Positions 47,465-64,000 of a stretch of DNA of 64,000 nucleotides are shown here, piece after piece. Both the position numbers and the translations under genes were made by a program. Every line of letters begins with the position of its first letter. Position 1 is the stretch's first letter. Origin of the DNA: a bacterium. GTDB taxonomy: Bacteria; Patescibacteriota; Dojkabacteria; B142; OLB20. The notes beneath the pieces were generated by a model, which ran no database searches, was not told the origin of the DNA, and saw only the letters and a program-made list of their open reading frames with translations. Location of the stretch: positions 6,105 to 70,104 of the forward strand of contig JBAXHO010000001.1 of the NCBI GenBank assembly GCA_037138855.1. The letters are read 5' to 3'.

Positions 47465-47579
47465 GAAATGAAATTTTAATTTGGATGCGCTGATTTTACC
47501 ATAAGTTTAAAGTGAATTATTTTAAAAGGATGACGGATTGATAAATTTAATTAAAGAAAATATTTATTTGAGGAGAATG

Positions 47580-48149
47580 TTAATTTTTCTCTAAATAATA
47601 CAAAATATGTAAGAATTTTACTCCAAGATTCTGGTCAAAATATTGTTCACTTTGTTTAACAGCGAAATTTTTGCTTTGAAAGAGTTTTCGCCACTCGCAA
47701 TCTGAGCGATAAGATTGCCAGTTTGCTCGAAACTGAAGATTAGCTAAGGTATCAGCCAGTACAGTTATAAATTTGTGAAAGGGATTTAAAAATGAAGTTT
47801 CAATGATCAGTAAGTTCTTAGCCACTCTGGCTGCTTCGTGAAATACAATTTCCGGATCTGGTGTATGATGCATGACCATAAGGAGCATCGCGGTTTCAAA
47901 TTGTTGATCAGCAAAGGGCAGGTGGCTTCCGTCATAAATTATTGGTTCGCTGAGTCGTGGTCCATGAAAGCTGGCTACATCTACTGGAGTCACAGCAAAG
48001 CCCTGATTTCTTAGTGCGAGAGTAATAGCTCCAGGTCCAGAGCCAATATCGAGAATTTTACCAGATTGGGGAAGATAAGGGAGAATTCTTTTTACAAATA
48101 ATGCCGTTCGTTTATCATTAAACTTCTGAAGTAATTTTGTTGGGATCAT
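47580..48149 (-). CDS. Class I SAM-dependent methyltransferase
   Basis: ILDIGSGPGAITLAL motif I. Confidence 0.8.
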   Translation of the reverse strand: MIPTKLLQKFNDKRTALFVKRILPYLPQSGKILDIGSGPGAITLALRNQGFAVTPVDVASFHGPRLSEPIIYDGSHLPFADQQFETAMLLMVMHHTPDPEIVFHEAARVAKNLLIIETSFLNPFHKFITVLADTLANLQFRANWQSYRSDCEWRKLFQSKNFAVKQSEQYFDQNLGVKFLHILYYLEKN

Positions 48150-48173
48150 CGGTCGTCTTAATATCGTATTGTA

Positions 48174-50540
48174 TTAGTTTTCATTTCCCTCAGTAAACTG
48201 TGTTTCTCTGATATTCTGAATATTGGAATAGCTGAGTAAGTCCCCGAAGAGATACATGTATTTCGTACCATCATAATAAAATGCTTCTGCTGGAGCTAGG
48301 GCATTTTTTTCTCCGGTTAGATTACGTCCAAATCCTGAGATAATTGGTGCTGGATTAGTGAGGGTAGTTATGTTGGCATTGACGATTAAGCCACCTTTTA
48401 AGAATAAGCCATCATTTTGTGTATCGTTAGGAATATTAATATTAGCTGTAATTATAAAAGCCTGAACCTGGTCATAGTTTGCATTAGAAGTACCGTTTGT
48501 TTTATTTGTGCCTTCGTTAATTGTCGTGGTGTCGCTTACTACAAACAAACAGGCACTAGAAGAGTTGTCAGTAAAATCCGGGTTGATGATAAGTTGATTA
48601 ACAAGAAAAATTGTTTTAGAGTTGCAACTTGAATTGGATTCAAGCGTAAGCTCTGGAATTGATACGACAAAGGGATTAGCATTATTGTAACCACTACAAA
48701 TTGAACTTAGTAAGTCAGCCGAATTGACATTTAAGGTCTGATTATCCAGAGTAGAACAAAAAGTATTTTGAGAGGTGGCTTTGGCTTTGACTGTAGTATT
48801 AAAATATTCAATCCAGGAATTGGTATTACTATTGCGGGTTTTGTAGTTCAAATCTGTATAAGACTGATTGGTATAACTATTGACAGACATGGGTAAACTT
48901 TTGGAAGTGATAGTAGACAATCCTGTATAAGTAGATAAGAAAGCTGGTTGATCAGCAAGTGAAGGAATATTTGTATTTGTTGTGATTTTACTTGGCGCCT
49001 TCACTCCTAGTAAAAAGTCAAAACTATTACTAAATGCCTCACCATTCATGGTCATCAGCCAAGGGTCGCTCATTTGATTGAGAGAAACTGAGGTAGCATG
49101 AATATTACAGGCCTGGTCTTTGACACTCCAGTCGATCCGGAGTGAGCTATAGCTACTCCCTTCAGAAATCGAATAATTTTTTGAAGTGGTACTGGTGATC
49201 TGGGAAAAGAAGTCTGATTTAGGTGTGGTCTGATTATCTAAAGTGAAGGTATGAGATTGACCATCGCTGGAGATGGTGGAATTAGCTGTAACTCCATTAG
49301 CGGTTCCGGTAGTAGTTCCGGAAATAATGCTATTTACTTCATCCGAAATTGTGAAATTCACTGTGAAACCTGAAGTTGAGGCATTAGTAATCCCGAGATT
49401 AATTGCTGGATCTGTGAGATCTACTCGCCAGAGAGTGGGATTACTTTGATCCCAGGAATATGCCCCCTTTTTATCTGCAGCAACTGTATATACTGTGAGT
49501 GGATCTTGATCAAAGATATTAGTTCCATTATCGAGGAATCCTACTTTCCAGGTTAATTTCACTTGGGTTCCGGAGACATCCTGGTTGGCCATGAGCATTA
49601 CCCAAGATGTAAAGTTACTATTACCTTCCACTACGTTTCCATTTGTTGGGTCAATCGTGCAGATTGATTGGGCACCATTATTTTTATCGGTGCAGATAGC
49701 TCTATTTGGAATGATATCTGCAAGACTAGAAGTAAAAGTTTCTGGAGCGGTATAATATAAATATTGGTAACTGCCCGGTCCGTTTTTTTTGACACGGATA
49801 TAGGCACCACCTTCTGCTCTGGTATTCCAGCCCAGTGCAGGCTCTGGTGATATCCAGAAGCCCATGCGGTCTAAGTCAGTATTGCCATCAGCATCATTAT
49901 GATATGTGATGACAGTGAGTGGATTATTGGCAGGATTGGTTTGACTTGTACTCAGTATATTAGCGTTACTTCCGCTATTCGTTGCCAGTTTACCTGACCA
50001 GTTAGGAAAACCGGAACTACAAGTCGAAGTATTGGTTATTTCTGAAGTAGAATCGGGTACATTATCGATAGGCACCGGAGTATAAGTAGGTCCAGGAGGA
50101 CTGGTCGGCCCTGGAATAGTAGGCGTAGGGCTAGGACTAGGCCACATGCAATAGCCATAATTCATCACTGGATTACATACGCGTTTTGTAGGTAACGAAC
50201 AACATCGTGCAGTAAAAATTGCATTTACTTCAGGAACATTTCCGGCAATGAACATTTGGCAATAGGGGGATGGATCATGCTGAAAAGTATCCCCACAATA
50301 TCCTAGAGAGTCTAGGGGGCAACTAACATGATTCCAACTATGTGTGACTGAACAGTATGAATAATTCCATGGATCACAGTAGCCACCACCGAACCAATCA
50401 TCATGATTAGTTCGATAACCTGCCAAAGGGTCCCAACCATGTACTATTTGGGTTTGCATAGTGAATAAGCCCATTAGTATTATAAATGCAAAAATAAAAA
50501 GTTTTGTTTTTAATTTGTTTTTTACCAACAATTGTTGCAT
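48174..50540 (-). CDS. Large secreted/surface hypothetical protein with an N-terminal 12-Cys module and a Pro-rich linker
   Basis: Signal/TM peptide; ...GYCDPWNYSYCSV...SCPLDSLGYCGD...YCQMF...ARCCS...; PSPSPTPTIPGPTSPPGPTYTP; an S/T/N-rich 600-aa domain. Confidence 0.5.
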   Translation of the reverse strand: MQQLLVKNKLKTKLFIFAFIILMGLFTMQTQIVHGWDPLAGYRTNHDDWFGGGYCDPWNYSYCSVTHSWNHVSCPLDSLGYCGDTFQHDPSPYCQMFIAGNVPEVNAIFTARCCSLPTKRVCNPVMNYGYCMWPSPSPTPTIPGPTSPPGPTYTPVPIDNVPDSTSEITNTSTCSSGFPNWSGKLATNSGSNANILSTSQTNPANNPLTVITYHNDADGNTDLDRMGFWISPEPALGWNTRAEGGAYIRVKKNGPGSYQYLYYTAPETFTSSLADIIPNRAICTDKNNGAQSICTIDPTNGNVVEGNSNFTSWVMLMANQDVSGTQVKLTWKVGFLDNGTNIFDQDPLTVYTVAADKKGAYSWDQSNPTLWRVDLTDPAINLGITNASTSGFTVNFTISDEVNSIISGTTTGTANGVTANSTISSDGQSHTFTLDNQTTPKSDFFSQITSTTSKNYSISEGSSYSSLRIDWSVKDQACNIHATSVSLNQMSDPWLMTMNGEAFSNSFDFLLGVKAPSKITTNTNIPSLADQPAFLSTYTGLSTITSKSLPMSVNSYTNQSYTDLNYKTRNSNTNSWIEYFNTTVKAKATSQNTFCSTLDNQTLNVNSADLLSSICSGYNNANPFVVSIPELTLESNSSCNSKTIFLVNQLIINPDFTDNSSSACLFVVSDTTTINEGTNKTNGTSNANYDQVQAFIITANINIPNDTQNDGLFLKGGLIVNANITTLTNPAPIISGFGRNLTGEKNALAPAEAFYYDGTKYMYLFGDLLSYSNIQNIRETQFTEGNEN

Positions 50541-50546
50541 GTATTC

Positions 50547-51509
50547 TTATTCTAAAATCGAAAAATAATAGTTTTGAAAATTAAATAGCTGGTTCTGTTC
50601 GTCAGCACAGCGTAATTTTTTATCCAATTGAACCATTTCAGTTTTATTATATTCATTAAAAATACTAAAAGTGACTAAAGTGACTTGATTATTATCGAGA
50701 TATGTAGTTTGAAGCATGGCCACGATATTTTGAAAAAGTAATTTGCAATAAGAACAAGAAAAATCTATAAAAACTATAATATAATTAGTATTACTATTAC
50801 CTTGAGTAATACCACCGGTAATAGTAATTGGTTTTATTGGATAACCTTGTTGAAATTTCGCCTCGATTTCAGCCATTTGAGTTGTCAATTGTTGTTGCTG
50901 AGTTGCTTCATTAGAGAATTCACTTTGGCGGGAAATGATATCTTTATTAATTTCATTCTCAATTCCTTTCAGCTGAGAGGCAATCCAAAGGTCGTGGGTT
51001 TTGGTGATGTTGTTTTGGGTGAGATAATTCAGGATTGTTTTCAATTCTTTTGCTTGTGTCGACTCAGGTACTTCAAAGCCTTCTAGTTTGTCGCCATTTT
51101 TTTTGGCGATAAAGACAGAAGGAGAAAATCCGACCTTATTGTCCTGGTAGCTTTTTTCGGCAGCGGCGATTTGGCTGGTAAAATCCTGCGTTTGTAGACA
51201 TTTATCAAATTGAGTTTTATCGATTTGTGATTTATCCAGATAGAGATTGGTACATTGATCAGACAATGGGTTACTTGGCTGACAGCCATAATTATCTAAT
51301 ACCACTTGTTCAATAACGGGAATAGCAATTGTTGGAGCTGGCGTAACATTAATTAAGCTAGTAGAGTTATTATTCTCGGAATCCGGGTTAGTTTTGAATC
51401 TCATTACAATTATCACGAAAATAAGTCCAGCGAAAATCCCAATCAGGAAAGAAGCAAGTAATATAATTGGAAGTTTTTGCTTCATAATTAAAGTAAGAAA
51501 AATCAACAA
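50547..51509 (-). CDS. Membrane-anchored DsbA/thioredoxin-like thiol-disulfide oxidoreductase
   Basis: CxxC active site FIDFSCSYCKLLF in a thioredoxin-like context; N-terminal TM. Confidence 0.6.
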   Translation of the reverse strand: MLIFLTLIMKQKLPIILLASFLIGIFAGLIFVIIVMRFKTNPDSENNNSTSLINVTPAPTIAIPVIEQVVLDNYGCQPSNPLSDQCTNLYLDKSQIDKTQFDKCLQTQDFTSQIAAAEKSYQDNKVGFSPSVFIAKKNGDKLEGFEVPESTQAKELKTILNYLTQNNITKTHDLWIASQLKGIENEINKDIISRQSEFSNEATQQQQLTTQMAEIEAKFQQGYPIKPITITGGITQGNSNTNYIIVFIDFSCSYCKLLFQNIVAMLQTTYLDNNQVTLVTFSIFNEYNKTEMVQLDKKLRCADEQNQLFNFQNYYFSILE

Positions 51510-51650
51510 GAAGTGAATATATTTATATATTACATAAATTCTAAAAGTTTGTCGAAGAAAATTAAATTAAGATCGGTGTTCTACATTCGGTAATCGGTGA
51601 TCGGTGAACGGAAGATAGAATAGCACAATAGATTAGGAGTTTAGCACTCA

Positions 51651-52292
51651 TTAATTTCGATTTTGCTTTTGGATAAAGTGTGACAGTAGTAGGCCACAAA
51701 TCAAGCCAGTACCGTGGGCTACTAGGTATGGATAATTATGTGTTACTAACATGGAAATAAGAAAACTAATGATAATACCAATTCCCAATACGCGTTGCCG
51801 ATAGGTTCTTAATATCTGGGGAATCAATAAATAAATACCCATTAAGCCAAATCCTACATTGGAAAGTCCAATATCCTGATAATTTCTCAATTGAAAAAGT
51901 TGATATAAAACTAAATATTCTACTAAGATTGTAATGATATTGTAGATCATGATTGTAAAGAGCAGCTTTTTGCTGCCCAAACAATATTCATACCAGAAAA
52001 AGAAGGGCACCATGAGTAAAATCCCTGGTAACATTGCTGGGTCTCTCACAGCTAGAAGCATTGTAAAATGCCGATAAAGTAGACTGAGATCAATTTGATT
52101 AAAAATTATTCCAAATTTGGTGATAACTGTTTCACTATGATTAAAGTTATATAAAGTACCAGAATAGGCATTGATAATCATAATACCAAGGAAAATACAG
52201 CAGGAAAGAGGCATTTTGAAAATCAGCTGTTTAAAATAACTAATTTGTTTTGTAATGTTCATGATAGAAATAATTTTAGCATTAAAGAGCAA
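51651..52292 (-). CDS. Polytopic membrane protein, possibly rhomboid-like
   Basis: GLSNVGFGLMG (cf. GxSGxxxG) and VAHGTGLICGL (cf. AHxxGxxxG); low certainty. Confidence 0.35.
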   Translation of the reverse strand: MLFNAKIISIMNITKQISYFKQLIFKMPLSCCIFLGIMIINAYSGTLYNFNHSETVITKFGIIFNQIDLSLLYRHFTMLLAVRDPAMLPGILLMVPFFFWYEYCLGSKKLLFTIMIYNIITILVEYLVLYQLFQLRNYQDIGLSNVGFGLMGIYLLIPQILRTYRQRVLGIGIIISFLISMLVTHNYPYLVAHGTGLICGLLLSHFIQKQNRN

Positions 52293-52624
52293 GTAATAAA
52301 TAGTAGTCTTACAACTCTGAGTTGAAAATAAATCTTTTAAATTTAAGAAGATCGCCAGCAGAGATCCAAATTAAATAATATCCTATAATTGTTAAAGCAA
52401 AATGATATCAAAAAATATTAATTATGTAAAAATGCTTTAACGATTTTGAACTTACTGCCTCATATATTCAGCTGATATTGTAAATCTGGATTTTATAACA
52501 ATAATTCGTATCTTTATTCATTTTAATTTGATAAATATTTGTGACTTGTAATATCCTTTTTCTTACTAACTATTTTTATCCTATAATTATCCTTTTTTTC
52601 TTTAATTTGTGATATAATAGGCAG

Positions 52625-53128
52625 ATGAGTACAATTTTACCAGTTACAATTTATCGTCAAAGTATTGCTGCTGATCGTGAGCAGATTAACTATTTAATGG
52701 AGAAATTATTAGTTCATCTTGCTAAGATTAGCCCGACACGAAAAGATAAGCCAGAGGATGGCTTTACTGATATTTATCATGATAGAGTGATCAAATTGGT
52801 GCAGCAAAAAAAAGCGAATATTCTGGTAGCTGAACAAGAAGGAGTAGTTGTCGGCTTTGGTTTCGGTGTGATCAAAGAGCACAATATTGAAGCACTTCAG
52901 GAATTCAAAGATCTTAAATCAGGCTTAATTACTGATCTTTATGTAGACTGTAATTACCGTGGTCAGGGGATTGGCCGGGAATTAGTGAAGCAATTTATGG
53001 CATATTTTAAAGCAAATGGCTGTCATCAGGCAGAGATTTATGTCTTACATGCTAATGATCAGGCGCATGAACTATATAAACGTCTTGGCTTCAAGGATGA
53101 GCTTTCGGAAATGTGTATTCCTCTCTAA
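52625..53128 (+). CDS. GNAT-family N-acetyltransferase
   Basis: YRGQGIGRELVKQFMAYF motif. Confidence 0.8.
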   Translation: MSTILPVTIYRQSIAADREQINYLMEKLLVHLAKISPTRKDKPEDGFTDIYHDRVIKLVQQKKANILVAEQEGVVVGFGFGVIKEHNIEALQEFKDLKSGLITDLYVDCNYRGQGIGRELVKQFMAYFKANGCHQAEIYVLHANDQAHELYKRLGFKDELSEMCIPL

Positions 53129-53149
53129 CAAATTTTTCAATCTGTTCTT

Positions 53150-54208
53150 TTATGGTAATGCCACGGTTCCGCTTGGCCCAATTGCTTTATACTCATGAGG
53201 ACACATCCCTTGATCTGGTGTACAGGTAATGGCTACTGATTGTAGTTCGCGGTAAGTAATTGTGTTTTGCTTGGCATTAAATTGAAAATCACCAGCTTCG
53301 GGTAGGCTGATATCCTGGTTGGTAAAGGTATTGAGGAGAATAGTTTTCCCTGGTCCGATTTCATCACAGCCATAGCAGCTAGTTAGTCTGATATCAAGGT
53401 AATTGCCTGCGTAGAGTGTGTCGACAAAGAGACCGCCTTTGTATTTGCCAAGCGGAATTTGTTTATTATTAATACCGGTAACTGCAGTCGTGCCATCGAG
53501 TGGTCGGGAATAAAGTGGGGCACTAGCATCAGTCGCTAGGTTAAATTCAAATATTGTCGTTGTATCCGGATAATCATAAGTACCTGCTTTGCCAAGTGCC
53601 AGACCGAAATAGGCACGTTGGCTAGTTGCATCATAATAAAAGCCGGTGAAATAGATTTCCTGTTTGGTAGCAGCTTGATAAAGCACATGTTTTTCACTCA
53701 ATAAATTGAAATCAGCAGTGTAATTAGCATCATCCGGAATCGTTTGATTGGGTTCATGCATATAGGCAACTTCCTCAATGAAATTTCTGGAAGCATCACT
53801 ATTTTTAAAAAATAATACATATTGTCCCTGATATTTACCGAAATATACTGTTTGTTGGTGTAAGCTGGAGATAGGAGCTTGGTCGACTTTGCTCCAGTTT
53901 AATAATTTATCAGAAAATTGTGCAGTAGGTAGAGTGGTTGGAGTAATATTACTGTTGTTGATTGTAGGTGTCACAATCTCTGTGGGTGTGATAGTGCCAA
54001 AATTAAAAAGATAATCAGGGCCAAGGTTATTTAAAGGATCATGGTTTTTCTGATAATTCTTGAGAATTAATCCAATGCCAATTACTCCGCTACAGCAACA
54101 AAAAAGGATAATAACGATTGTGAGAATGATCAGGAGACTTTTTTTTGTGACTGATTTGCTTTTTAGCGCAGGTGAGGCTGGGACATTAGAATTTGGGGTA
54201 GGATTCAT
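53150..54208 (-). CDS. Membrane-anchored secreted protein, paralog family A (YFGKYQG... / CYGCDEIGPG motif)
   Basis: Shares architecture and motifs with 56961-57947 and 59955-61094. Confidence 0.5.
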   Translation of the reverse strand: MNPTPNSNVPASPALKSKSVTKKSLLIILTIVIILFCCCSGVIGIGLILKNYQKNHDPLNNLGPDYLFNFGTITPTEIVTPTINNSNITPTTLPTAQFSDKLLNWSKVDQAPISSLHQQTVYFGKYQGQYVLFFKNSDASRNFIEEVAYMHEPNQTIPDDANYTADFNLLSEKHVLYQAATKQEIYFTGFYYDATSQRAYFGLALGKAGTYDYPDTTTIFEFNLATDASAPLYSRPLDGTTAVTGINNKQIPLGKYKGGLFVDTLYAGNYLDIRLTSCYGCDEIGPGKTILLNTFTNQDISLPEAGDFQFNAKQNTITYRELQSVAITCTPDQGMCPHEYKAIGPSGTVALP

Positions 54209-54402
54209 AATATTTTTTGTAATAGCTGATAAATAAATAGTACAAGTTTTCTTAGCAACTGTAAATTAAAAATCTCTTTGAATTGTCTAGAGAATTCTTT
54301 TGTTTTGGATTTTAATTTTGAAGCTGACAAATTTGTATCACAATACATTGTTGTTTCTGTCTGACCAGTTTATAATAATTTTTTATCTAAATTATTATAA
54401 AT

Positions 54403-55398
54403 GTGATGCTAAAAAGATTTAATGCTTATTTGACATGGCTCGATGAGAATGAAGACCATCGCTCCGTTCGCCTTATCAATCAAATTTTTCCGGTAATAAC
54501 CTGTTTGATTCTCTTTATTGTATTCATGTTTTTTTCGATTATCTTCATTAAGTTTTTAATGAATCCTTTTGCCTCTGATCCGATTGAACTGAAATTGCAT
54601 TTTTCCAGCATGGCGGTAGGATTTTTTCTATATTTTGTCACTGCAGTTGATTATGCTTTGATTGTAGGACGGATGCAGGCTGCCAATCCCGGAATCAAAG
54701 CGCGTTTCGCAATGAATGTTTTTACCTGTATTGGTTGTTTTATAGGAGTTACAGTAGTTTTGTTTCTCTGGGGTTTTGCCAAAGAAGTTTCCTGGTTAAT
54801 TTTGCCACTCCTAATCTTTGCTGGGAGTGTAATGATAAAATTGGCATATGAAGGAAGAGGATATTTTGAAAAATCAAAAAGTGTTCCGTTTTTTATTAGA
54901 ATTCCACTTGCCCGCTTATTAAAAATATTTTTTTACTTCAGTAAACCCTTGACTTTCTGGATTCCAGAATTAGGCAGTCCTAATGTCCAGAAAATGCGGA
55001 TCCGTAACTTGGCAAAATGGGCATTTTTATTACCATTTATTATTGGTCTTGATGATTTTGTCGGTTATATGGGGGCGATGACGATTTATAATGTTTTTTC
55101 TTTACTATTTGGGATTTATTTAGCCGATATTGTGATTGATCTCTTGATTTTTATTTCTCCAAAGTTTACTAAGAAGGTAGTGCAGAGTGCATTACTATCA
55201 TTATTAGCTGCTTTTGCGTTTCTTTATTTAGCTTATAAATCATATTCTGAGTCATATCATCTTTTACATGAGAAATTTAATCTTGAGACAACTACAATTA
55301 TCCTAGGTGCACTTGGTTTTTTTACAATCGTGACAATTGTGGATTTGTTGACATTAATAGTAAGAAGAAAAGCAGGGCATAGTAAAAAATCTGAATAA
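54403..55398 (+). CDS. Polytopic integral membrane hypothetical protein
   Basis: ~8 predicted TM helices. Confidence 0.45.
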   Translation: MMLKRFNAYLTWLDENEDHRSVRLINQIFPVITCLILFIVFMFFSIIFIKFLMNPFASDPIELKLHFSSMAVGFFLYFVTAVDYALIVGRMQAANPGIKARFAMNVFTCIGCFIGVTVVLFLWGFAKEVSWLILPLLIFAGSVMIKLAYEGRGYFEKSKSVPFFIRIPLARLLKIFFYFSKPLTFWIPELGSPNVQKMRIRNLAKWAFLLPFIIGLDDFVGYMGAMTIYNVFSLLFGIYLADIVIDLLIFISPKFTKKVVQSALLSLLAAFAFLYLAYKSYSESYHLLHEKFNLETTTIILGALGFFTIVTIVDLLTLIVRRKAGHSKKSE

Positions 55399-55453
55399 TC
55401 GGTCACGTTTGTTTTAGATCATTCGTTATCGCAGGTCAATATTTTTTTGAGTA

Positions 55454-55886
55454 ATGTTTAAGCTTACCCGGAAGCAACAAAAACTGATAATAGCAGCTGT
55501 CACGGCAGTTGCAATCTGTATTTCTTGGATAATATCCGTGGTATTTGGCGTCACTATTCTGGTTCAGGCGCCTGAAAGCAAAGTGGCAATAATTCCAGAA
55601 GTTACTCAGCAGCTTAGAACGAATCTTGTTGCAACAAAAAGTTTATCTTGCGTATGACACAGTGCAGCCCCAGCGGGATCGTTATCAGCGTTTATTGTTA
55701 TATGTTTATTTACCGAAAAGTGACGGGACCACATTATTTATCAATCAATATTTGGTTGCTGAAGGATTTGCCAGGATTTATGACAAAGTAAAATCCCGTG
55801 AATTAAAAAATTTTCAACAGCTGGAAATGCAGGCGAAAAAGGAGCAAAAAGGTTTATGGCGGGCATGCATACTGAGTAATGAGTAG
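55454..55886 (+). pseudogene. Degenerate/split thermonuclease (SNase) paralog
   Basis: The second ORF (55626-55886) encodes only the SNase C-terminal half (...RYQRLLLYVYLPKSDGTTLFINQYLVAEGFARIYD...KGLW). The first ORF (55454-55657) has the TM anchor, in another frame; the catalytic N-half motifs are missing. Confidence 0.5.
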
Positions 55887-56023
55887 GGAGTATTGAGTAA
55901 TTAGTAATTAGGAGTGATGAGTGAGTTGTAGTGGGAGGGGGGATTTTTGAGAAATTAAGAAACATGATATAAATTTTTTGATATAGATGTTATCATTAAT
56001 ACATTATCTTTTATTTTTTCCTG

Positions 56024-56758
56024 ATGGATAAGAAAGTCATTATAATTATTGTCGTACTGTTGGCAGTTTGCTGCTGTGTTTCGACATTGGGAATTATCGG
56101 ATTTGCTATTGTAGCAAGTAATTCCGACACTAGTACTAGCGGTGGCAGTGTAACCGATACAGTTTTTCCTACTGTAGAGATGAATACAGTTACTTCACTT
56201 TTTGATACATTTGATAGTAATACTTCTAAATGGAATCTTGGTAAAGATGATAGCGAATTTGCTGTTTCTGATGAATATCTCAAAGATGGCAAAATGTTGA
56301 TTGACGTTACTGCTAAACAGGCTGTCGTAGTAAGTGATGAATTACCTTCTCAGGCAATTAAAAATTTCGATTTATCGATTGAGGGCAAACAGCTTTCTGG
56401 TGCTCAAGGTGGTGATTATGCCGTGATCTTCCGCAGATTAAATGGCGATAATTACTATCTTTTTGGAGTCAATGAGGCTTATCAGGAATATACTTTGGCA
56501 GTTAAAAAAGATGGTGAGTGGGTAGATCTGATCGAATGGAAAAAATCATCAGTTATCAATCAAAATGCTGTCAATGTAATCAAAGTATCAGCAGTGGAAA
56601 GTCAATTGACTTTATATATCAATAATCAGCAGGTAAGTACTATTAGTGATTCTTCCATTCTCGAGGGTGGAGCAGTAGGTGTTGCCGGCGAATTGTATGA
56701 TGCCACTGACACAGCATTATTTCAATTTGATAATTTGTTGCTGACTGTGAAAGATTAG
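56024..56758 (+). CDS. Membrane-anchored concanavalin-A-like lectin/glucanase-fold (LamG/DUF1080-like) protein
   Basis: N-terminal TM helix, then a ~200-aa beta-sandwich-like region similar to the lectin-like insert of the giant adhesin. Confidence 0.4.
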   Translation: MDKKVIIIIVVLLAVCCCVSTLGIIGFAIVASNSDTSTSGGSVTDTVFPTVEMNTVTSLFDTFDSNTSKWNLGKDDSEFAVSDEYLKDGKMLIDVTAKQAVVVSDELPSQAIKNFDLSIEGKQLSGAQGGDYAVIFRRLNGDNYYLFGVNEAYQEYTLAVKKDGEWVDLIEWKKSSVINQNAVNVIKVSAVESQLTLYINNQQVSTISDSSILEGGAVGVAGELYDATDTALFQFDNLLLTVKD

Positions 56759-56877
56759 TAGGATACAAACTGTTTTTATCTTGCGAAGCGAAACAAGCGT
56801 AAGGGTAGCGAGCAAATAGGAAGTAGCAAGTATCATGTAGCATGTAGCAAGTAGAAAAGAGAAATTACGATAAAAAA

Positions 56878-56910
56878 ATGAGCTGCGGGAGCAGCTCTTT
56901 TTTTGTGACT
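56878..56910 (+). terminator. Intrinsic terminator GAGCTGCGGGAGCAGCTC plus T7
   Basis: Read directly; near-identical copies recur at 57965-57995 and 58245-58270. Confidence 0.7.
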
Positions 56911-56960
56911 ATTAACTGGCAATTCTAGTTTGAGGAGATATTAATTTATCATATATTATA

Positions 56961-57947
56961 ATGATGCAAGTTGATCAGCCGATTATGGCAAGTAGTAAAC
57001 AAGTGGAACAAAAGTTGGGGCAAAATGTTGTGAAGGCTACACTTTTGTTGGTGACATTATTGGTTTCCGTAGGAATTGTCGGAGCAGCAGTAGCCTTACA
57101 TTTTCGTAATAAAAATCAGCCAGTCAGTAAACCGGAAATTATTGTGTTAACTAGCCCAACTCCTGCATTAGTGGCTGGAAATTTACAGCCTACAGTCAAG
57201 GTGGCAGAGGCGACTCTCGCAGCGCCGACTACAGCAGCAACAGTTACAGCAGTGACCAAAGATGTGCTTTATCTCGGAAAATATCAGGAGAAACAGGTGC
57301 TGTTTTATGAGCCATATGCCAAAAAAGGTGAAGAACAGCCCGGTCTGAGCTTTGGGGTTGTGTCTGAAAATCAGGGATTTGCTGCTGCCAGAATTGATTT
57401 TGCACAAATTACAGATGCCAAAGCCTTTATGCAATTTACCGATCAAAAACAGTATTCTTATGTCGATTTCTTTATGTTTGATCAACATAACCTTTTCATT
57501 TCAGTTTTGAACACTGCTGATTTTTTGAATGAAAATAAACCAATTAATAATGATATTTACCGTTTTGACTTAACAACTGGCAAGTCGACGCTAGTTCGTT
57601 CCAAATTGATGACTAGCGGTCCAGTCACTTTTGATTCAGCGACAACTGATCAGTATTTAGTCCTGGAGCAATTACCTTGCTGGTATTGTGGTCCGGAGCA
57701 ACCGACTGACATCTTGGTTTATAATATCCAAACCCAAAAAGAAATCAATCTCAGCATGGCTGCCAATATAGTGTTGGACCAAACTAAAGTGAAATATCAA
57801 CTTTATCTAGAAACCACTGAACGCCCAAGTTGTAATACCGATGAATGTAATAATACTTTCTGTGCCCAGCCAGATATCTTCTGTACCTTCATGCAAGAAA
57901 TCGTCTGGAAAGTCGGAGGCGAGGTCAAGGAGCAGAGCTTACCGTGA
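56961..57947 (+). CDS. Membrane-anchored secreted protein, paralog family A
   Basis: LYLGKYQEKQVLFY..., LPCWYCGPEQPTDILVYNIQTQKEINL. Confidence 0.5.
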   Translation: MMQVDQPIMASSKQVEQKLGQNVVKATLLLVTLLVSVGIVGAAVALHFRNKNQPVSKPEIIVLTSPTPALVAGNLQPTVKVAEATLAAPTTAATVTAVTKDVLYLGKYQEKQVLFYEPYAKKGEEQPGLSFGVVSENQGFAAARIDFAQITDAKAFMQFTDQKQYSYVDFFMFDQHNLFISVLNTADFLNENKPINNDIYRFDLTTGKSTLVRSKLMTSGPVTFDSATTDQYLVLEQLPCWYCGPEQPTDILVYNIQTQKEINLSMAANIVLDQTKVKYQLYLETTERPSCNTDECNNTFCAQPDIFCTFMQEIVWKVGGEVKEQSLP

Positions 57948-58035
57948 GGGGATTGTTTTCTGGTAAAAAAAAGAGCTGCCGGAGCAGCTCTTTTTTTGAT
58001 AATCATTTAAATATAAACAAAACAGGAATTCTCGG

Positions 58036-58080
58036 CATGATCCGTACGGACAGGTTTCAAACCTGTCCGTACGGATCATG
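58036..58080. repeat. Perfect 22-bp-arm palindrome CATGATCCGTACGGACAGGTTT c AAACCTGTCCGTACGGATCATG
   Basis: Read directly; a second near-identical copy (1 mismatch) is at 58723-58762. Confidence 0.95.
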
Positions 58081-58277
58081 GTGTCGAAACCAACGAACGT
58101 CCCAGCTGCAATACTGATGAATGTAATAATACTTTCTGTGCCCAGCCAGATATCTTCTGTACCTTCATGCAAGAAATCGTCTGGAAAGTCGGAGGCGAGG
58201 TCAAGGAGCAGAGCTTACCGTGAGGGGATTGTTTTCTGGGAAAAAAAGAGCTGCCGGAGCAGCTCTTTTGGATATTA

Positions 58278-58661
58278 TTAAGGCGCAGATAAATTATCTT
58301 GAGTAGGTTTTGGTTTTGCACGTTCTGTTGCTGCTGTATTTGCTTGTCTTGTTTCTACTGCTGGTCTAAACATTTCTCCCCCATACTGTCTAGTTGTTTC
58401 AAAGCATGGACTACCTGGTTGACAATTTGCTGGTAATGGGATTCCGATTGGAGTTGGAGTACTGTTTAGATTACCATTACTTCCACTACCACCACCACCA
58501 TCGCAGCCATTTAATATTGTGCCAGCTACGCCAGTAAATAAGGTAAAAGCTAGTACTCCTCTTGATACTATGTGATAAATTTTAACTTCTATTGGAAGTT
58601 GATCAAAATTAGGGATACCTAAAAATTTCGACATGAATATATATCTAATATATAAAACCAA
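58278..58661 (-). CDS. Small membrane/secreted hypothetical protein with a Gly-rich region, inside the palindrome-bounded segment
   Basis: Probable start MSKFLGIPNF...; TM helix VLAFTLFTGVAGTIL; CDGGGGSGSNG. Confidence 0.35.
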   Translation of the reverse strand: MVLYIRYIFMSKFLGIPNFDQLPIEVKIYHIVSRGVLAFTLFTGVAGTILNGCDGGGGSGSNGNLNSTPTPIGIPLPANCQPGSPCFETTRQYGGEMFRPAVETRQANTAATERAKPKPTQDNLSAP

Positions 58662-58722
58662 GCTAATATTTTAACATATTGAAGATATATTTTCAACCTT
58701 TTCAAAAATTATTCTAACATCC

Positions 58723-58762
58723 CTCCGTACGGACAGGTTTGAAACCTGTCCATACGGAGGAT
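58723..58762. repeat. Second copy of the palindrome (CTCCGTACGGACAGGTTT g AAACCTGTCCATACGGAG)
   Basis: Read directly. Confidence 0.9.
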
Positions 58763-58832
58763 CGATGCCAACTCAGCAATCACGACCTATTGCCATCCCT
58801 CCCCCAAACCACTACAATACTTTCATACCTGA

Positions 58833-59786
58833 TTGCCAATGGTTTTGTCGAAAGCTCTGAAAATTATTATTATCGTCCTTGTCGCAGTAGCAGTGATGTT
58901 GCTTACTGTTTTTTTATTGTTTGTCAGCGGGGTGACGCATGAGGTGCAGTTAATTATTTTTCCTCCGACAGCGACACCGCTGCCTACTATAACTCCGATT
59001 CCGACGCCTACGCCGACACCGACTTTGACGCCTACGCCGACACCGGATTTGAATAATTTTGCGAAAGATTATGATTATCCGCCGAAAGAGCAAAATAAAG
59101 GGACTGTGCGTATCCCGGTTTTGACCTATCATCATGTCGCTCCGATCCCGGATCAGCAAAATATGCAGGCTTATTACGTCACGCCAGTGATGTTTGAAAA
59201 GCAGTTGCAGTACCTGAAAGAAAAAAATTATCGTACTTTGACCACCAGAGAGTTTCTCGAGCAAGTGAAAAGCGGTCAAAATCCCAGTCAGAAGTCGATA
59301 GTGCTCACTTTTGATGATGGTGCGAAAAATAATTATGATAATGCTTTTCCCTTGTTGAAAAAATATGGTTTTGTCGGTGTGTTTTACATCCCGACGAATA
59401 AAACAGGTATAACCCAGACACAGCTCAAGGAAATGGCTGATGCTGGTATGGAAATTGGCTCACATTCCAAAACTCATCCGGATCTCAGTAAAATTTCGGA
59501 TGACGCGAAATTAACCGATGAAATTATTAATAGTCGGGGGATGCTGCAGAGCTGGACCGGACAGGATATTTATAGTATTGCCTATCCCGGTTGTACTGCA
59601 AATTCTCTGAACATCAGTTATGTGACCAAAGCCGGTTATCAGGTGGGTTTTTCCTGTGGAAAAGTGATTGATCATAAATATTCGCAGCGTTATGTCCTTT
59701 CCCGGATCCATGTTTACAGTAATTTGGATAATTTTAAGAAAATCCTCTCTGGTTTGGGAGAATTTACGACGGAGTATGGGGATTGA
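58833..59786 (+). CDS. Polysaccharide deacetylase (CE4/NodB family), membrane-anchored with a TP-rich linker
   Basis: IVLTFDDGAKNNYDNAFPLL (TFDDG), GMEIGSHSKTHPDL (H-x4-H), PTPTPTPTLTPTPTP linker. Confidence 0.85.
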   Translation: MPMVLSKALKIIIIVLVAVAVMLLTVFLLFVSGVTHEVQLIIFPPTATPLPTITPIPTPTPTPTLTPTPTPDLNNFAKDYDYPPKEQNKGTVRIPVLTYHHVAPIPDQQNMQAYYVTPVMFEKQLQYLKEKNYRTLTTREFLEQVKSGQNPSQKSIVLTFDDGAKNNYDNAFPLLKKYGFVGVFYIPTNKTGITQTQLKEMADAGMEIGSHSKTHPDLSKISDDAKLTDEIINSRGMLQSWTGQDIYSIAYPGCTANSLNISYVTKAGYQVGFSCGKVIDHKYSQRYVLSRIHVYSNLDNFKKILSGLGEFTTEYGD

Positions 59787-59954
59787 GAGACGGTAACCGG
59801 TGATCGGTGAGCGGAAGAAGGATGAGTATCAAGTAGCAAGTATCAAGTAGTAGTAAGAAAAACGTTAGTGAACTATTACTAATGTTAAGGTACTATCAAG
59901 TAATTTTTTATGCTATATTATTATGCGCAAAGTTAAATTTAATAAATTGCTAAA

Positions 59955-61094
59955 ATGATTGAACAAATCTCTGAAAAACCAAGTTTAGAAGCGGTACAGC
60001 CTCTTAATCAAGTTTCAGCTAATTCAGCAGGAGTTACAGAATTATCTCAGCAAAAAGGTAAAAGTAATCAAAAACCTTTATTAATATTGGCTGTGACAAG
60101 TTTGATGCTGTTGATATTTTTATTAATTTGCGGTTTTGTTTGGGCGCTGGTGCGTGCAAGACAAAATAACACTGCCACACAATCCTGTAATTACCAGGGG
60201 ATTAATTATGATAATGGCATTGGTTTTCCGTCTAGTGATGGTTGTAATAGCTGTTCCTGTGCTGCCGGTCAAGTAGTATGTACAGAAATGGCTTGTTTCA
60301 ATCCAACTGAGACACCGGCAGTGACAAAAATGCTTAGTAATCAGCCAACTGTCACTTATGACCAGACAGAACAGAAAAATACTTTGTATCTCGCAGAATT
60401 GAATGGGCAAAAAGTAATTTATACCCGGGTGCAAGGTAACTGGATTTCCTGCGGCGATGCTGCCAAGCCGGCAATTTACAATAGTCTTTCCGCAAAAAAT
60501 GGCTTTCAGTTTGCTGGTGATCCCAGCTGTACTGAGTTTGCTAGTTTGAGTCAGGCACAAAGAATTCTGGAATTTAGCGGGACAGAGCAGTATGATTTTT
60601 ATGATTATTATCAGGTAGATAATTTCTTGTATGTTTCTGTGCTTAAATCAGTCAATCTGGCTAGTTTGGAAGATCATACTTTTAATGAGGTTTATCAAGT
60701 AGATTTAACTACTTTGCAAAAGCAATTATTGTGGACCCGAGAAATTGGTGATGCCAAATATGCCAGCAAAGGGCCAATTCAGTTCCTGCCAGTGACGACA
60801 AATAAATATGTGGTGATGAATGTATTATCTTGCTGGAGTTGTGGTCCGGAAACACCAGATGATGTAATTATTTTGAATATTGCTACCAAAAAAGAATCGC
60901 TGGCAGAACGTGCTACTAATATTATTCTCGGTAGTGGCCAATATACATTCAAGCAGTATATTGATCATGCATATTTTGACATTAATGATAGCAGTAGTTT
61001 TGCGACTTATTGTCACTCAGATCAATACTGGTGTGGCGATGGTGGTAGCTACTGGAAACTAGATAATCTTATTTCGACAAGACCGTTGCCATAA
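59955..61094 (+). CDS. Membrane-anchored secreted protein, paralog family A
   Basis: LYLAELNGQKVIY..., LSCWSCGPETPDDVIILNIATKKESL. Confidence 0.5.
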   Translation: MIEQISEKPSLEAVQPLNQVSANSAGVTELSQQKGKSNQKPLLILAVTSLMLLIFLLICGFVWALVRARQNNTATQSCNYQGINYDNGIGFPSSDGCNSCSCAAGQVVCTEMACFNPTETPAVTKMLSNQPTVTYDQTEQKNTLYLAELNGQKVIYTRVQGNWISCGDAAKPAIYNSLSAKNGFQFAGDPSCTEFASLSQAQRILEFSGTEQYDFYDYYQVDNFLYVSVLKSVNLASLEDHTFNEVYQVDLTTLQKQLLWTREIGDAKYASKGPIQFLPVTTNKYVVMNVLSCWSCGPETPDDVIILNIATKKESLAERATNIILGSGQYTFKQYIDHAYFDINDSSSFATYCHSDQYWCGDGGSYWKLDNLISTRPLP

Positions 61095-61840
61095 TGTTCA
61101 GTGTCGTTATTCCTACTTTTAATGAAGCCAAGTTTTTAGGTGATTTATTGCTGGCAATTAAGGCTCAGACGATTCAGCCGGTGGAAATTATTGTGGCGGA
61201 TAATCATTCCAGTGATCAAACAAGAATGATTGCCAAACAGTTTGGTTGTAAAATAGTCAGCGGTGGCAGTCCTGCTGTCGGTCGTAATCATGGCGCCAGA
61301 GCGGTAACGCAAAAAATTATCTTTTTTTTGGATGCTGATGTAGAGTTGGCAAGTCCGGATTTTTTTGCTCGAGCCTTAGCTGAAATGAATAAAGAATCGG
61401 GATCGATTGGCAGCTGTCGGATTAAAAATTCTACAATTGCGGGAAATCGTTCGATGCGATTAGGAGAACTTATCACTGATGTTCGTCCGCTTTTAAATCA
61501 AGCGACTATTGCACTGACTGGAAAATTATTTTCCGATATGGGAGCAGTTATGATTTGTACCAAAGCGCTTTGGGAAAAGATTGCTGGTTTCGATGAAAAG
61601 CTTTATACGATTGAAGATACAGATTTTTTTCGGAGAGCGGTAGCAGCAGGTGGCAAGTACTTTTTTGTGAAGGTTACTGTTCTGATTTCACCACGGCGTT
61701 TTATCAAGCGTTCCCGTTTGAAATTGGTAAAAATGTCAGTGCTGTTAATTGCAATATTGACATTAAGTTTTTTTGGAATTAAAAAATATGCCGGGTTGCA
61801 TGAGGAGTATCAAAAAGAAAAAGGCAAGTTGGGTGGTTAG
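61094..61840 (+). CDS. Family 2 glycosyltransferase (DPM1-like) with a C-terminal TM
   Basis: VVIPTFNEAKFL, ...IIVADNHSSDQT, FLDADV (DxD). Confidence 0.85.
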   Translation: MFSVVIPTFNEAKFLGDLLLAIKAQTIQPVEIIVADNHSSDQTRMIAKQFGCKIVSGGSPAVGRNHGARAVTQKIIFFLDADVELASPDFFARALAEMNKESGSIGSCRIKNSTIAGNRSMRLGELITDVRPLLNQATIALTGKLFSDMGAVMICTKALWEKIAGFDEKLYTIEDTDFFRRAVAAGGKYFFVKVTVLISPRRFIKRSRLKLVKMSVLLIAILTLSFFGIKKYAGLHEEYQKEKGKLGG

Positions 61841-61891
61841 TTGTTCTTCAGTAAAAAAAAGTTTATACTTAATTATTCTTAAAAAAATTTC

Positions 61892-62167
61892 ATGGAAAAT
61901 AAATCTTTACAAAAAACCAATCCTAAGTATTTATTAGCTGCTGGTGTAATAGCATTATCCATTGTTACTCTTGGTGGGGCAGTGGCTTTTTATAAAGTTA
62001 AAATTGATCAGGGACAGGCAAATCTGCAAAATGAATTACCTGTTACAGGCATTAAGGATCCAGAGCCTAATTTTGGCTGCGATGAATTTAGTTATGGTAA
62101 AACTCAGGTAGTCAATACCACGCGTTGGGTTTGTGAAGATACCGGCTGGCAAGGATATTCTTTGTAG
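61892..62167 (+). CDS. Small membrane-anchored hypothetical protein
   Basis: N-terminal TM helix; 91 aa. Confidence 0.35.
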   Translation: MENKSLQKTNPKYLLAAGVIALSIVTLGGAVAFYKVKIDQGQANLQNELPVTGIKDPEPNFGCDEFSYGKTQVVNTTRWVCEDTGWQGYSL

Positions 62168-62210
62168 GATAAAGGGTAATTAGATATAATTTTCAGTTTT
62201 ATCACCAACT

Positions 62211-62501
62211 ATGTCAAAACTACAGCCGCAGGATGTTTTAGAAAAGTTAATTGCCTGTTTTGTCGAAGCACATTGTACTGCTTTGCAATTTGAAACCAAT
62301 GATTTGGAAACCTCGAATGATTATTGCATTAGTGTGATTAAAAAAGCCTTTGAAGAAACTGGCGGGAATTTTGATAAGCCTACGAAAGATTCTATTTTGG
62401 CTGTTACTAATTGGCTGGCAAATTTTTCTGCCAATTTTCGTCGCCCGGAAATAATTAAGAAAAATTATAATAAAATGATGGGATACATTGACCAGTTATA
62501 G
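62211..62501 (+). CDS. Hypothetical cytoplasmic protein
   Basis: 96 aa. Confidence 0.3.
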   Translation: MSKLQPQDVLEKLIACFVEAHCTALQFETNDLETSNDYCISVIKKAFEETGGNFDKPTKDSILAVTNWLANFSANFRRPEIIKKNYNKMMGYIDQL

Positions 62502-62537
62502 ATAGTGAACAAATATTTTTATTCTGTTGAAATTGTG

Positions 62538-62921
62538 TTATTTCACTACCTGAAAAGGGCTGACACTGATGTCGATAGTTTTACTGGTGTTGAAATAATA
62601 TTCATTAACTGCTGCTGAAATTAAAATATTACGAAAGTTCGCTTGAGTGGGATGGTTAGAGATAGTAGCTTGACAGTTCCCAGCTGTTAGAGTGACTGTA
62701 AGATTCCCGGTATAATTCTGATTAATTTTAAGTTTCTGTAGGCTTTCTTCAAAGCAGGTATCAGCGACTACAATCGCCTCGGTATTATTTAATTTTGCCT
62801 TAGAGGCTTTTGCTAAATCCACACTGTTAAATACCACAATCATTCCACCGATCAGGAGAACCCCGGAAAGGGCAATTACTGTTATTAAGGAAGCACTAGC
62901 AGGTAATTTTTGCTGTTTCAT
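62538..62921 (-). CDS. Putative minor pilin / pilus-associated protein
   Basis: N-terminal hydrophobic segment LITVIALSGVLLIGGMIVVF; last gene of a pseudopilin operon. Confidence 0.4.
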   Translation of the reverse strand: MKQQKLPASASLITVIALSGVLLIGGMIVVFNSVDLAKASKAKLNNTEAIVVADTCFEESLQKLKINQNYTGNLTVTLTAGNCQATISNHPTQANFRNILISAAVNEYYFNTSKTIDISVSPFQVVK

Positions 62922-63419
62922 TTAGTCTAAACTTAATACTAGATTAATTTGGGTTTTACGATCGCTGCGGGTCAGATGGGCGAGCTCTAATTCTACAGCA
63001 ATTGCTCTGGGAATGCCTTGTAAATCATTGATTTTAGTAAGATGAAATTTGGTAACATTCATCGTATCCGGGGTAATCGGGTTAATCTGACCGTTGGCAG
63101 AAAATATTAAACGGTTATTTTCCAGGTAATATGTTTTAAATATGGTAGAAGTAGTGAGATAAATCCGTCCCTGATCAGAATCGAAAGCACTTTGTGCAGT
63201 ATCGATACCAGAAGTATTGCGAAAGCTATCTTCTAAATGTTCGGTGATAAAAATCTTTTGTTTTGCCAGAGTATTGTCGGTATTAACCTTTAAATTACTT
63301 TCTTGAATCGAAAGGACAAATTGGATAATGGCAGTAAAAATAATTGCAAACAGTGCCAAATAAATAATAGTTTCTACTAATGTAATCGCTTTTAATTTTT
63401 TTTTGAAAATTTTCTTCAT
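62922..63419 (-). CDS. Type IV pilin-like / pseudopilin (prepilin N-terminal cleavage-methylation domain)
   Basis: KAITLVETIIYLALFAIIF matches the class III signal (G/A)(F/I)TLxE plus a hydrophobic helix. Confidence 0.6.
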   Translation of the reverse strand: MKKIFKKKLKAITLVETIIYLALFAIIFTAIIQFVLSIQESNLKVNTDNTLAKQKIFITEHLEDSFRNTSGIDTAQSAFDSDQGRIYLTTSTIFKTYYLENNRLIFSANGQINPITPDTMNVTKFHLTKINDLQGIPRAIAVELELAHLTRSDRKTQINLVLSLD

Positions 63420-64000
63420 TGATAATCCAGACTAATGTCATAAAATATTGGTGTGCCGTAACGATTGGATGAAAGGAAAGCTTTATATTGGACATAGCGC
63501 TTATCCTGGACACTAGTTGGTAGTGTACTGCCTGCTTTATCGGTAAAAAATGTATTACCAGTATTATCTGGTCCGACAAAGATGGCACCACTTAAAGTAG
63601 CAGTATCGCTAGCCCGGATTTGTAATTTGAGATCAGTATTGGCTGGGATTAGGCTATTCCAGCTGATGGTGTATAGTTTGGGATCAGCTCGCTTTGTATC
63701 AAAGATAGATGAAGTATAAGTACCATTTTCTACATAACCATAACCATTGCCAGCTCCACCACCAGGACCACCGCGAATAATTTTGAATTCAGCATTGGGA
63801 TCACCGGTAATCAAATAAGCAAAAGCATTACCCTCAGCATCATAGCTAGCATCTAGATCGTAAATACCATTATCAATTTGAAGTCCACCACAACGGGTTG
63901 GATGACGTTCATCGGAAATATTATAAACCTGATATTCTTCACCACCGGTACCGGCCAAAATGGCGACATTACCACTGGCAACTACAGCAATACCTTGCAC
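63416..64000 (-). CDS. C-terminal part of a larger pilus-operon protein (continues beyond the window end)
   Basis: The open frame reaches position 64000 without a start codon; Gly-rich GPGGGAGNGYGY; 4-nt overlap with the pseudopilin gene. Confidence 0.4.
   Translation of the reverse strand: MQGIAVVASGNVAILAGTGGEEYQVYNISDERHPTRCGGLQIDNGIYDLDASYDAEGNAFAYLITGDPNAEFKIIRGGPGGGAGNGYGYVENGTYTSSIFDTKRADPKLYTISWNSLIPANTDLKLQIRASDTATLSGAIFVGPDNTGNTFFTDKAGSTLPTSVQDKRYVQYKAFLSSNRYGTPIFYDISLDYQ

Follow-up and report, generated by a model that had tools for sequence, protein, structure and literature searches.

We have analyzed a locus in which two long palindromes, PAL1 and PAL2, bracket a copied gene end and a small orphan gene. 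The locus lies in a 64,000-nucleotide (nt) stretch of a Dojkabacteria metagenome-assembled genome (MAG; GenBank assembly GCA_037138855.1, contig JBAXHO010000001.1, positions 6,105 to 70,104), hereafter called the window. A first-pass annotation of this window, made from the letters alone, had described the locus as a palindrome-bounded insertion. Our finding is that the palindromes belong to a widespread hairpin family which elsewhere accompanies transposases resembling REP-associated tyrosine transposases (RAYTs), and that they are probably repetitive extragenic palindromes (REPs) of the double-foot type. The features of the locus, in window coordinates, are as follows.

56871–56905, no strand: T_up, copy 1 of a bidirectional terminator, 5' of gene A, with an A run, the stem GAGCTGC/GCAGCTC and a T run
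56961–57947, plus strand: gene A (NCBI WCJ58_00325), a 328-amino-acid orphan membrane-anchored protein, 3' end duplicated
57810–57997, plus strand: D1a, the functional copy of the duplicated end, with the last 46 codons of gene A and terminator T_A
57998–58035, no strand: AT-rich 38-nt spacer from T_A to PAL1, with no detectable relative
58036–58080, no strand: PAL1, putative REP copy 1, with core GGACAGGTTT-C-AAACCTGTCC, GTAC/GTAC feet and locus-specific outer arms CATGATCC/GGATCATG
58086–58269, plus strand: D1b, the non-coding duplicate, with the last 46 codons of gene A and terminator T' (58241–58269)
58278–58634, minus strand: small orphan gene of 118 amino acids (NCBI WCJ58_00330), terminated by T'
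58668–58696, minus strand: promoter-like site of the small gene, TTGAAA, 17 nt and TAAAAT with a TG extension
58722–58760, no strand: PAL2, putative REP copy 2, with the same core, central G and feet GTAC/ATAC
58839–59786, plus strand: polysaccharide deacetylase gene (PF01522, 93.9 bits), the right border of the locus

A repeat search of the window resolved PAL1 into two perfect 22-nt arms separated by a single central base, as first annotated. PAL2 had likewise been given 22-bp arms, at 58723–58762; its single mismatch was confirmed, but its arms measure 19 nt and span 58722–58760. Both are short palindromes within the 20–45-nt range of REPs and fold as stable hairpins, PAL1 at -42.3 kcal/mol (z = -10.3) and PAL2 at -31.9 kcal/mol on the plus strand and -39.1 on the minus strand, where the one C·A mismatch of its feet becomes a G·U pair; no shuffled sequence folded as well in either case. 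They share a 35-nt palindromic core (58041–58075 and 58724–58758), TCCGTACGGACAGGTTT[C/G]AAACCTGTCC[G/A]TACGGA, which is 94% identical between the two when read directly and 97% when they are read as reverse complements. The outer arms differ (CATGA/TCATG in PAL1, CC/GG in PAL2) though each is self-complementary, and no flank similarity was found between PAL1 and PAL2 beyond the 35-nt unit. The 16-nt half-site occurs four times in the window, always within PAL1 or PAL2, against a chance expectation of 0.15. PAL1 starts 89 nt past the stop codon of gene A, after the canonical terminator T_A, and PAL2 lies between the divergent small gene and deacetylase gene; the two are 648 nt apart with one gene between them, and the whole PAL1–PAL2 stretch is about 683 bp. 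A terminator scan called neither palindrome, and they are not canonical intrinsic terminators because they lack U runs.

The 21-nt core of the hairpin, GGACAGGTTTNAAACCTGTCC, was scanned against one genome per species (loci L003–L122; metagenome contigs are numbered L123–L147) and was found in at least 120 stretches, where by our own estimate about one chance match is expected. Its hosts include Omnitrophota, Chloroflexota, many lineages of Patescibacteria, Gammaproteobacteria, Acidobacteriota, Latescibacterota, Clostridia and others. GTAG/CTAC feet are the commonest (65 of 169 copies) and give a 29–31-nt palindrome, GTAC/GTAC feet occur in 15 of the 169, and rarer pairs such as GTAA/TTAC, GCAG/CTGC and TTGG/CCAA likewise preserve pairing. 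In the length of its perfect arms PAL1 ranks third among these 169 copies. Family copies usually lie within tens of nt of a stop codon, and where open reading frames (ORFs) were present on both sides (103 copies) the neighbors were co-directional in 63, convergent in 32 and divergent in eight. The family is therefore extragenic and mostly downstream of genes, as REPs are, with PAL2 excepted on account of its divergent neighbors. In a viral collection the core was present in one contig only. Rfam holds no such family and returned only sub-threshold chance matches to microRNA hairpin models; a literature search with the core DNA gave unrelated primer matches only, and one with the encoded peptides gave nothing.

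REPs are usually described as lineage-specific. The identical 21-nt core nevertheless occurs in more than ten phyla, which suggests either that a REP/RAYT pair spread horizontally or that the hairpin is strongly constrained. The core is amplified within single MAGs, with dozens of copies in Omnitrophota JAUYEC01 and further amplification in Chloroflexota JAPPFU01, and in a high-GC organism of metagenome Ga0316201 it forms the center of a longer repeat with conserved flanks. Some copies lie inside genes: a Maf-like gene at L088 1526–2218 (PF02545, 184.7 bits; the same gene occurs in L135) has two in-frame hairpins 195 nt apart that encode NVGTGLKPVPIK and SVRTGFKPVPTL, an intragenic REP decoration of the kind reported for other genes.

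Clustering of the ORFs near the hairpins revealed one recurrent family of interest, of 160–200 amino acids, in which the ORF itself contains the hairpin. These proteins match the Pfam family Y1_Tnp (PF01797, IS200-like) at 29–46 bits against a cutoff of 23. Their best NCBIfam model is REP_Tyr_transpos (NF047646) at 63–73 bits, below its equivalog cutoff of 80, and they reach 19–32 bits with the IS200 model, far below the REP_Tyr_transpos score. Y1_Tnp genes overlap a hairpin in six loci that had been sampled by the hairpin alone. The first-pass annotation had proposed that enzymes of the IS200 type, which recognize hairpins in single-stranded DNA, use such palindromes, and this was borne out in other genomes by RAYT-like Y1_Tnp genes that are both flanked by the hairpin and carry it in frame. 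Such genes are those of L143 (9723–10232), with hairpins 33 nt upstream and 11 nt downstream, L051 (4041–4568) and L120 (3711–4187), each with one hairpin inside and another just outside, L027 (2384–2977) and L089 (2918–3445); the in-frame copy is also represented in proteins P0006–P0125.

A profile search was saturated, with at least 7954 RAYT-like matches from 8000 scored candidates, many of them named RayT by the Joint Genome Institute (JGI). In 99 of the best 120 of these matches the motif V-G-x-G-[LF]-K-P-y-P-T stands between the HuH and Tyr motifs. The residues at x and y occur as N-F (63), T-V (27), E-S (4), D-S (2), A-A (1) and V-T (1), all of which are reverse-complement codon partners; a single I-V pair is the exception. 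A DNA palindrome is therefore kept at that in-frame position. The fixed site and the covariation suggest that a RAYT gene may carry the master copy of its own REP; we did not find the fixed in-frame site and strict covariation spelled out in PMC6006769. Proteins P0023 and P0049 have two to six tandem in-frame copies.

A metagenome scan for the GTAC variant led to contigs of JGI sample Ga0194063, in which part of the window contig is present too. Among these contigs L139, to which the 36.2-kb ENA contig L151 corresponds, encodes the protein NCBI WCJ58_05245, whose locus-tag prefix is that of the window genes. L151 has hairpins at 9854, 11518 and 12345, each in the intergenic gap behind one of three successive co-directional genes in an ordinary gene row. 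The search for the palindrome beyond the locus that the first-pass annotation called for has thus shown that it is not private: with these three copies the MAG total so far is five, at two loci, in the approximately 95 kb examined (the window and L148/L151). The L151 feet are GTAC/GTAC and GTAT/ATAC, and the GTAC/ATAC feet of PAL2 look like an intermediate between the two. The L151 copies have a common left flank, ATCATTYGTAY, which resembles ATGATCCGTAC of PAL1. At L139 5126–5190, around the L151 copy at 12345, a decayed second unit (62% identical, offset by 28 nt) abuts the intact REP and suggests that tandem REP copies may erode in place. L125, a GTAC-type locus from the same JGI sample, belongs to another bin, named Chloroflexota, and was left out of the count.

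The hairpin family corresponds to the double-foot REPs published for TnpA-REP subclass 2.4. This subclass, equivalent to RAYT group 4, was described by Quentin et al. 2018 (PMC6006769) as having double-foot REPs with GT[AG]G at the 5' side and C[TC]AC at the 3' side, as occurring in scattered phyla with greatest abundance in Cyanobacteria and Bacteroidetes, and as having REP copies within the reading frame of the tnpA-REP gene itself, placed between HuH and Y. The family as found in other genomes agrees with that description: it forms a long and perfect hairpin whose 5' foot, GT[AG]G, is mirrored by the reverse complement at the 3' side, flanks the Y1 gene, lies in frame within it between the HuH and Tyr motifs and is scattered across phyla. 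The window copies differ in their feet, GTAC/GTAC or GTAC/ATAC, and in their locus-specific arms, which are much longer (22 and 19 nt), and their host belongs to a poorly sampled lineage. The published foot motif is present in the family consensus GTAG/CTAC, and the GTAC and GTAT feet appear to be a lineage variant that keeps pairing. Classical GTAG REPs and REP doublets forming hairpins (REPINs) (Di Nocera et al. 2013, PMC3733652; Bertels and Rainey 2011, PMC3116915) are similar in being short, in following genes with co-directional or convergent neighbors, in compensatory stem changes, in occasional in-frame intragenic copies and in their RAYT association; GTAG REPs were recorded at gene ends, with intragenic copies as well (PMC3733652). 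The tag of classical GTAG REPs is unpaired and at one end, whereas that of the window REPs is paired on both sides. REPINs consist of two inverted REPs in about 70–110 nt in total, in contrast to the 648 nt and the gene that separate PAL1 from PAL2, and classical REP families are specific to a species or genus whereas the window core is common to many phyla.

The gene between the palindromes has the marks of a native gene. The first-pass annotation had placed a small protein on the opposite strand at 58278–58661, and this ORF does exist from a TTG codon, but the gene callers used for the public assemblies start it at ATG 58634. The protein has an N-terminal hydrophobic stretch followed by a Cys, and its remainder is rich in Gly, Ser and Pro. 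Its codon score (codon-usage log-odds trained on 24 window genes) is 0.289, the best of the six frames and within the genome range of 0.09–0.33; gene A scores 0.263. No homologue other than itself was found among 5.8 billion proteins, and there was no Pfam match. The promoter-like site at 58668–58696 agrees with the consensus at 10 of 12 positions, and is to be read as a consensus match only.

Three copies of a 35-nt bidirectional terminator are present (56871–56905, 57964–57998 and 58239–58273), of which T_up is 94% identical to the copy at 57964. The hairpins at 56880, 57973 and 58248 are each a G+C-rich stem-loop followed by a U run, the form of an intrinsic terminator. The stem-loop of T_A (57966–57997) folds at -19 kcal/mol with A8 and T7 runs on its sides. 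T' (58241–58269), in the context GGGAAAAAAAG, folds at -17.7 kcal/mol (z = -6.7) and has a 7-U tail on the minus strand; because of this 7-T run T' can end the small gene, in agreement with the bidirectional use first proposed for it. The stem occurs three times in the window, where 0.07 are expected, and the other contig of this MAG lacks it. The flanks of T_up are unlike those of the other two copies, making it a tiny local repeat, and the idea that it is a leftover of an earlier gene A unit was discarded for want of flank similarity.

D1b begins 5 nt (GTGTC) past PAL1 and repeats the end of gene A together with its terminator. This duplication had been recognized at first pass as 57860–57990 versus 58112–58262, limits that are slightly off: the exact run is 124 nt long and pairs 57840–57963 with 58116–58239. 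Past it the A and T runs that surround the terminator stem vary in length between the two D1 copies, the sole difference there. The diverged 5' edge that had also been remarked consists of seven substitutions, all within the first 30 of the 138 coding nt (P about 1e-5 under an even spread). Six of the seven fall at third codon positions (P = 0.007), and five of the six changed codons are synonymous, the other changing T to N. Since the differences are mostly at third positions and synonymous, the diverged part of D1b appears to record how two functional versions of gene A had diverged. D1b itself cannot be translated as a gene: its frame contains a TGA (58038) and lacks a start codon upstream of 58170.

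The assembly supports this arrangement. The MEGAHIT contig k141_1153938 in ENA (88.9 kb) is 100% identical over window positions 46023–64000, the whole locus included, and the NCBI contig (88,839 bp) has the same three genes, WCJ58_00325, WCJ58_00330 and the deacetylase. Two k=31 Logan contigs from run SRR7053653 end at 57869 and 58210, exactly 30 nt into the 124-nt exact repeat from either side, as expected of a real two-copy repeat in the reads. The check for an assembly artefact that had been recommended therefore upheld the duplication through both the MEGAHIT contig and the Logan contig ends. The PAL1–GTGTC–D1b joint is unlikely to have been made by an assembler, because it has no sequence in common with gene A upstream of 57810.

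We consider it probable that PAL1 and PAL2 are double-foot REPs, that the small gene between them is native and that D1b is a separate local event, a recombination scar with a hairpin at its breakpoint. By analogy with studied RAYT/REP pairs, the hairpin would fold on single-stranded DNA, and a Y1 enzyme would recognize the stem and the foot tetranucleotide and would cut and rejoin beside the foot, so that a hairpin of about 30–45 nt could spread into the gaps at gene ends. The spreading unit would be the hairpin itself and not the DNA between two hairpins. A cognate enzyme for these REPs is assumed to be encoded in this MAG. The usual GTAG/CTAC feet would have become GTAC/GTAC in this genome with pairing preserved, and transcribed copies may serve as RNA 3' hairpins. 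The simplest cause of the longer locus-specific arms, 22 nt in PAL1, may be template-switch correction of a quasi-palindrome. Bracketing of the small gene would follow from PAL1 and PAL2 having entered consecutive intergenic gaps, as three copies bracket two genes elsewhere; two hairpins around one gene can be attributed to ordinary REP spread because L151 shows three in consecutive gaps. The supposed palindrome-bounded insertion would then be ordinary REP biology plus a local scar, and to look for a new mobile element here would be wasted effort; a GTAC-footed variant of the double-foot REPs would now be seen in a poorly sampled bacterial lineage. A RAYT gene with the core at a fixed in-frame position could hold the master REP copy.

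For D1b we prefer a history in which it is the remnant of a second version of gene A, truncated 5 nt from PAL1. Its source could be a tandem paralogue, and a paralogue with 26% identity is indeed present at a distance of 2 kb, or a resident allele that an incoming one displaced via homology-facilitated illegitimate recombination. The break may have been made at PAL1, either by illegitimate joining stimulated by the palindrome or by RAYT nicking. We infer that the identical 3' part reflects recent gene conversion between nearby copies or a mosaic allele. A new joint beside a hairpin would fit palindromes and REPs as recombination breakpoints under this history or the alternative one considered below, and would be a further example of REPs marking rearrangement breakpoints. 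REPs were recorded at duplication join-points by Shyamala, Schneider and Ames (1990, EMBO J 9:939), as that work is cited in PMC7661048. In those duplications, as there cited, a REP likewise lies at the novel joint of the duplicated segment, but the large tandem duplication arose there by recombination between two REPs, whereas in the window the joint partner at 57810 has no REP and there is no simple tandem repeat. RAYT cutting takes place at CT or CA dinucleotides next to the REP foot (PMC8266576), and the position of the joint would fit this as well. The recombination hotspot suggested at first pass is still plausible at the REP hairpin, though not between terminator copies as had been supposed. 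The sequences at the PAL1/D1b joint are too short for microhomology to mean anything, and we make no claim of it. A tandem duplication of the gene end, terminator, small gene and REP followed by deletion was also considered and set aside, since the 38-nt spacer and the flanks of PAL1 and PAL2 resembled neither the small-gene region nor each other more than shuffled sequences do.

Several observations weigh against the double-foot REP interpretation. No Y1 or RAYT gene was found in the approximately 95 kb of the MAG examined, which also sets the window apart from the published double-foot systems with their cognate RAYT, and no WCJ58 tag was found among the best 120 of the at least 7954 RAYT-like matches. 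The window feet, GTAC/GTAC in PAL1 and GTAC/ATAC in PAL2, do not follow the published GT[AG]G motif literally. REPs are dispersed in many copies, and those known so far in this MAG number five, in about 95 kb; the assignment of L151 to the same MAG is by metagenomic binning and the shared variant. PAL2 lies between divergent genes, the rarest placement in the family (8 of 103). Gene A lacks database relatives that could show the ancestral arrangement: its sole match among the 5.8 billion proteins is itself, and the metagenome scan found none. For D1b, duplication in place followed by allelic replacement inside gene A fits the same substitution pattern as well.

In that latter account, either an 88-nt piece (the spacer, the REP and 5 nt) was inserted or a replication fork stalled at the hairpin switched template, whereby 185 nt of target, the gene end with its terminator, came to lie on both sides; homologous recombination with a diverged allele later replaced gene A up to about 57839, and D1b would be a relic of the earlier allele. 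In its favor, the D1 copies lie immediately on either side of the 88-nt piece, gene A stays whole, and allelic replacement predicts the mostly synonymous differences and sharp boundary that are seen; the join-points recorded by Shyamala et al. 1990, as cited in PMC7661048, speak for it too. We nonetheless regard it as rather unlikely, given that it requires two separate events, that enzymes of the IS200/RAYT type are not known to make target duplications, still less of 185 nt, and that the spacer has no relative anywhere, so that the origin of the inserted piece is left unexplained. An origin of the whole duplication in assembly, with two strain variants of the metagenome threaded into one contig, is very unlikely. 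The k=31 graph is indeed ambiguous across the 124-nt exact repeat, and sample heterogeneity is hinted at by JGI and Logan contigs that both end at 62495, with the next Logan contig starting at 62503; there is no repeat or palindrome at 62495–62503, and the break may reflect strain variation in the sample. A k-mer of 141 spans the 124-nt repeat, however, and the MEGAHIT k141 contig is fully concordant over the locus; moreover, the joint shares nothing with gene A 5' of 57810 and so needs real k-mers, and the copies differ at their edges, hence no identical repeat was collapsed or expanded.

The first-pass annotation raised the possibility of a mobile cassette of about 700 bp. In this explanation a Y1 transposase (RAYT- or IS200-like) acts in trans on the two hairpin ends of the approximately 683-bp PAL1–PAL2 segment, a non-autonomous element that was inserted here from a donor with a hairpin inside a homologue of gene A. 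The association of the family with Y1 enzymes and the presence of hairpins in frame within genes (the Maf gene of L088 and the RAYT genes) would accommodate it, and PAL1 read in the D1b frame gives SVRTGFKPVRT, the frame of the intragenic copies. It had been noted correctly that no transposase lies inside the segment, and no member of the transposase, TnpB, integrase or recombinase families turned up in 48 window ORFs. The repeated unit is the hairpin of about 35 nt, and no second copy of the whole unit was found in the MAG sequence examined or in the protein, plasmid and phage collections, where the segment had no plasmid or phage match and the small protein was unique. The codon usage of the cargo is native, and the fragment inside copies the immediately adjacent gene and therefore points to a local origin. 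The 38-nt spacer showed no relation to 58266–58726 (best local score 8.5; shuffles 10.6 +/- 1.7). In the same MAG an ordinary gene row likewise has a gene enclosed by a pair of hairpins, and mobilization of a gene between two REPs is unreported in the REP/RAYT literature cited here. IS200/IS605 elements and their non-autonomous derivatives, the palindrome-associated transposable elements (PATEs), are comparable in belonging to the Y1 HUH superfamily, in their subterminal hairpins on single-stranded DNA and in lacking the usual terminal inverted repeats, but their left and right hairpins, which lie on one strand and have guide tetranucleotides, are distinct and imperfect and they move as whole multi-copy units; the window has the same perfect palindrome at both ends, hence no readable strand or end polarity, and a single-copy, local cargo. 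The cassette is accordingly very improbable, and the more specific proposal that the two REPs are the ends of a 650-bp cassette for the small secreted-protein gene that a RAYT mobilizes, deletes or inverts, with D1b as cargo from a donor that had a REP in frame inside a homologue of gene A, is very improbable as well; if true, no earlier instance would exist of a gene being moved by a domesticated REP transposase. It is extremely unlikely that the palindromes are host signals, namely terminators or the operator of a dimeric regulator, which came to resemble each other by convergence with no REP/RAYT tie. Copies do stand just after genes, and in some Clostridia loci (L022, L053) the core lies between A and T runs and resembles a bidirectional terminator; yet T runs are missing from PAL1, PAL2 and the three L151 copies, PAL1 already has a canonical terminator before it, and convergence does not explain an identical 21-nt core in many phyla and around and inside Y1 genes.

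Integron-like recombination sites had also been suggested. Integron attC sites are imperfect, have extrahelical bases and stand in arrays next to an intI integrase gene. Cassettes with such sites resemble the window in having a small gene beside a palindromic site that can fold on single-stranded DNA, but the window has perfect palindromes in two copies, no array and no integrase among its 48 ORFs, and this suggestion was dropped.

Gene A has a paralogue 2 kb away at 59955–61094, 26% identical and 379 amino acids long, with an additional Cys-rich N-terminal module. The paralogue matches Pacifastin_I at 28.8 bits against a Pfam cutoff of 27.9 and has a weak VWC match; both are animal-type domains, unusual for a bacterium. 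Elsewhere in the window, a 2013-amino-acid ORF at 16199–22240 had no Pfam match at E <= 1e-5. ARAGORN called no tRNA gene in the 64 kb and identified a 488-nt transfer-messenger RNA at 35626–36113 with the tag peptide AAIAASFAPALAFNGVVA.

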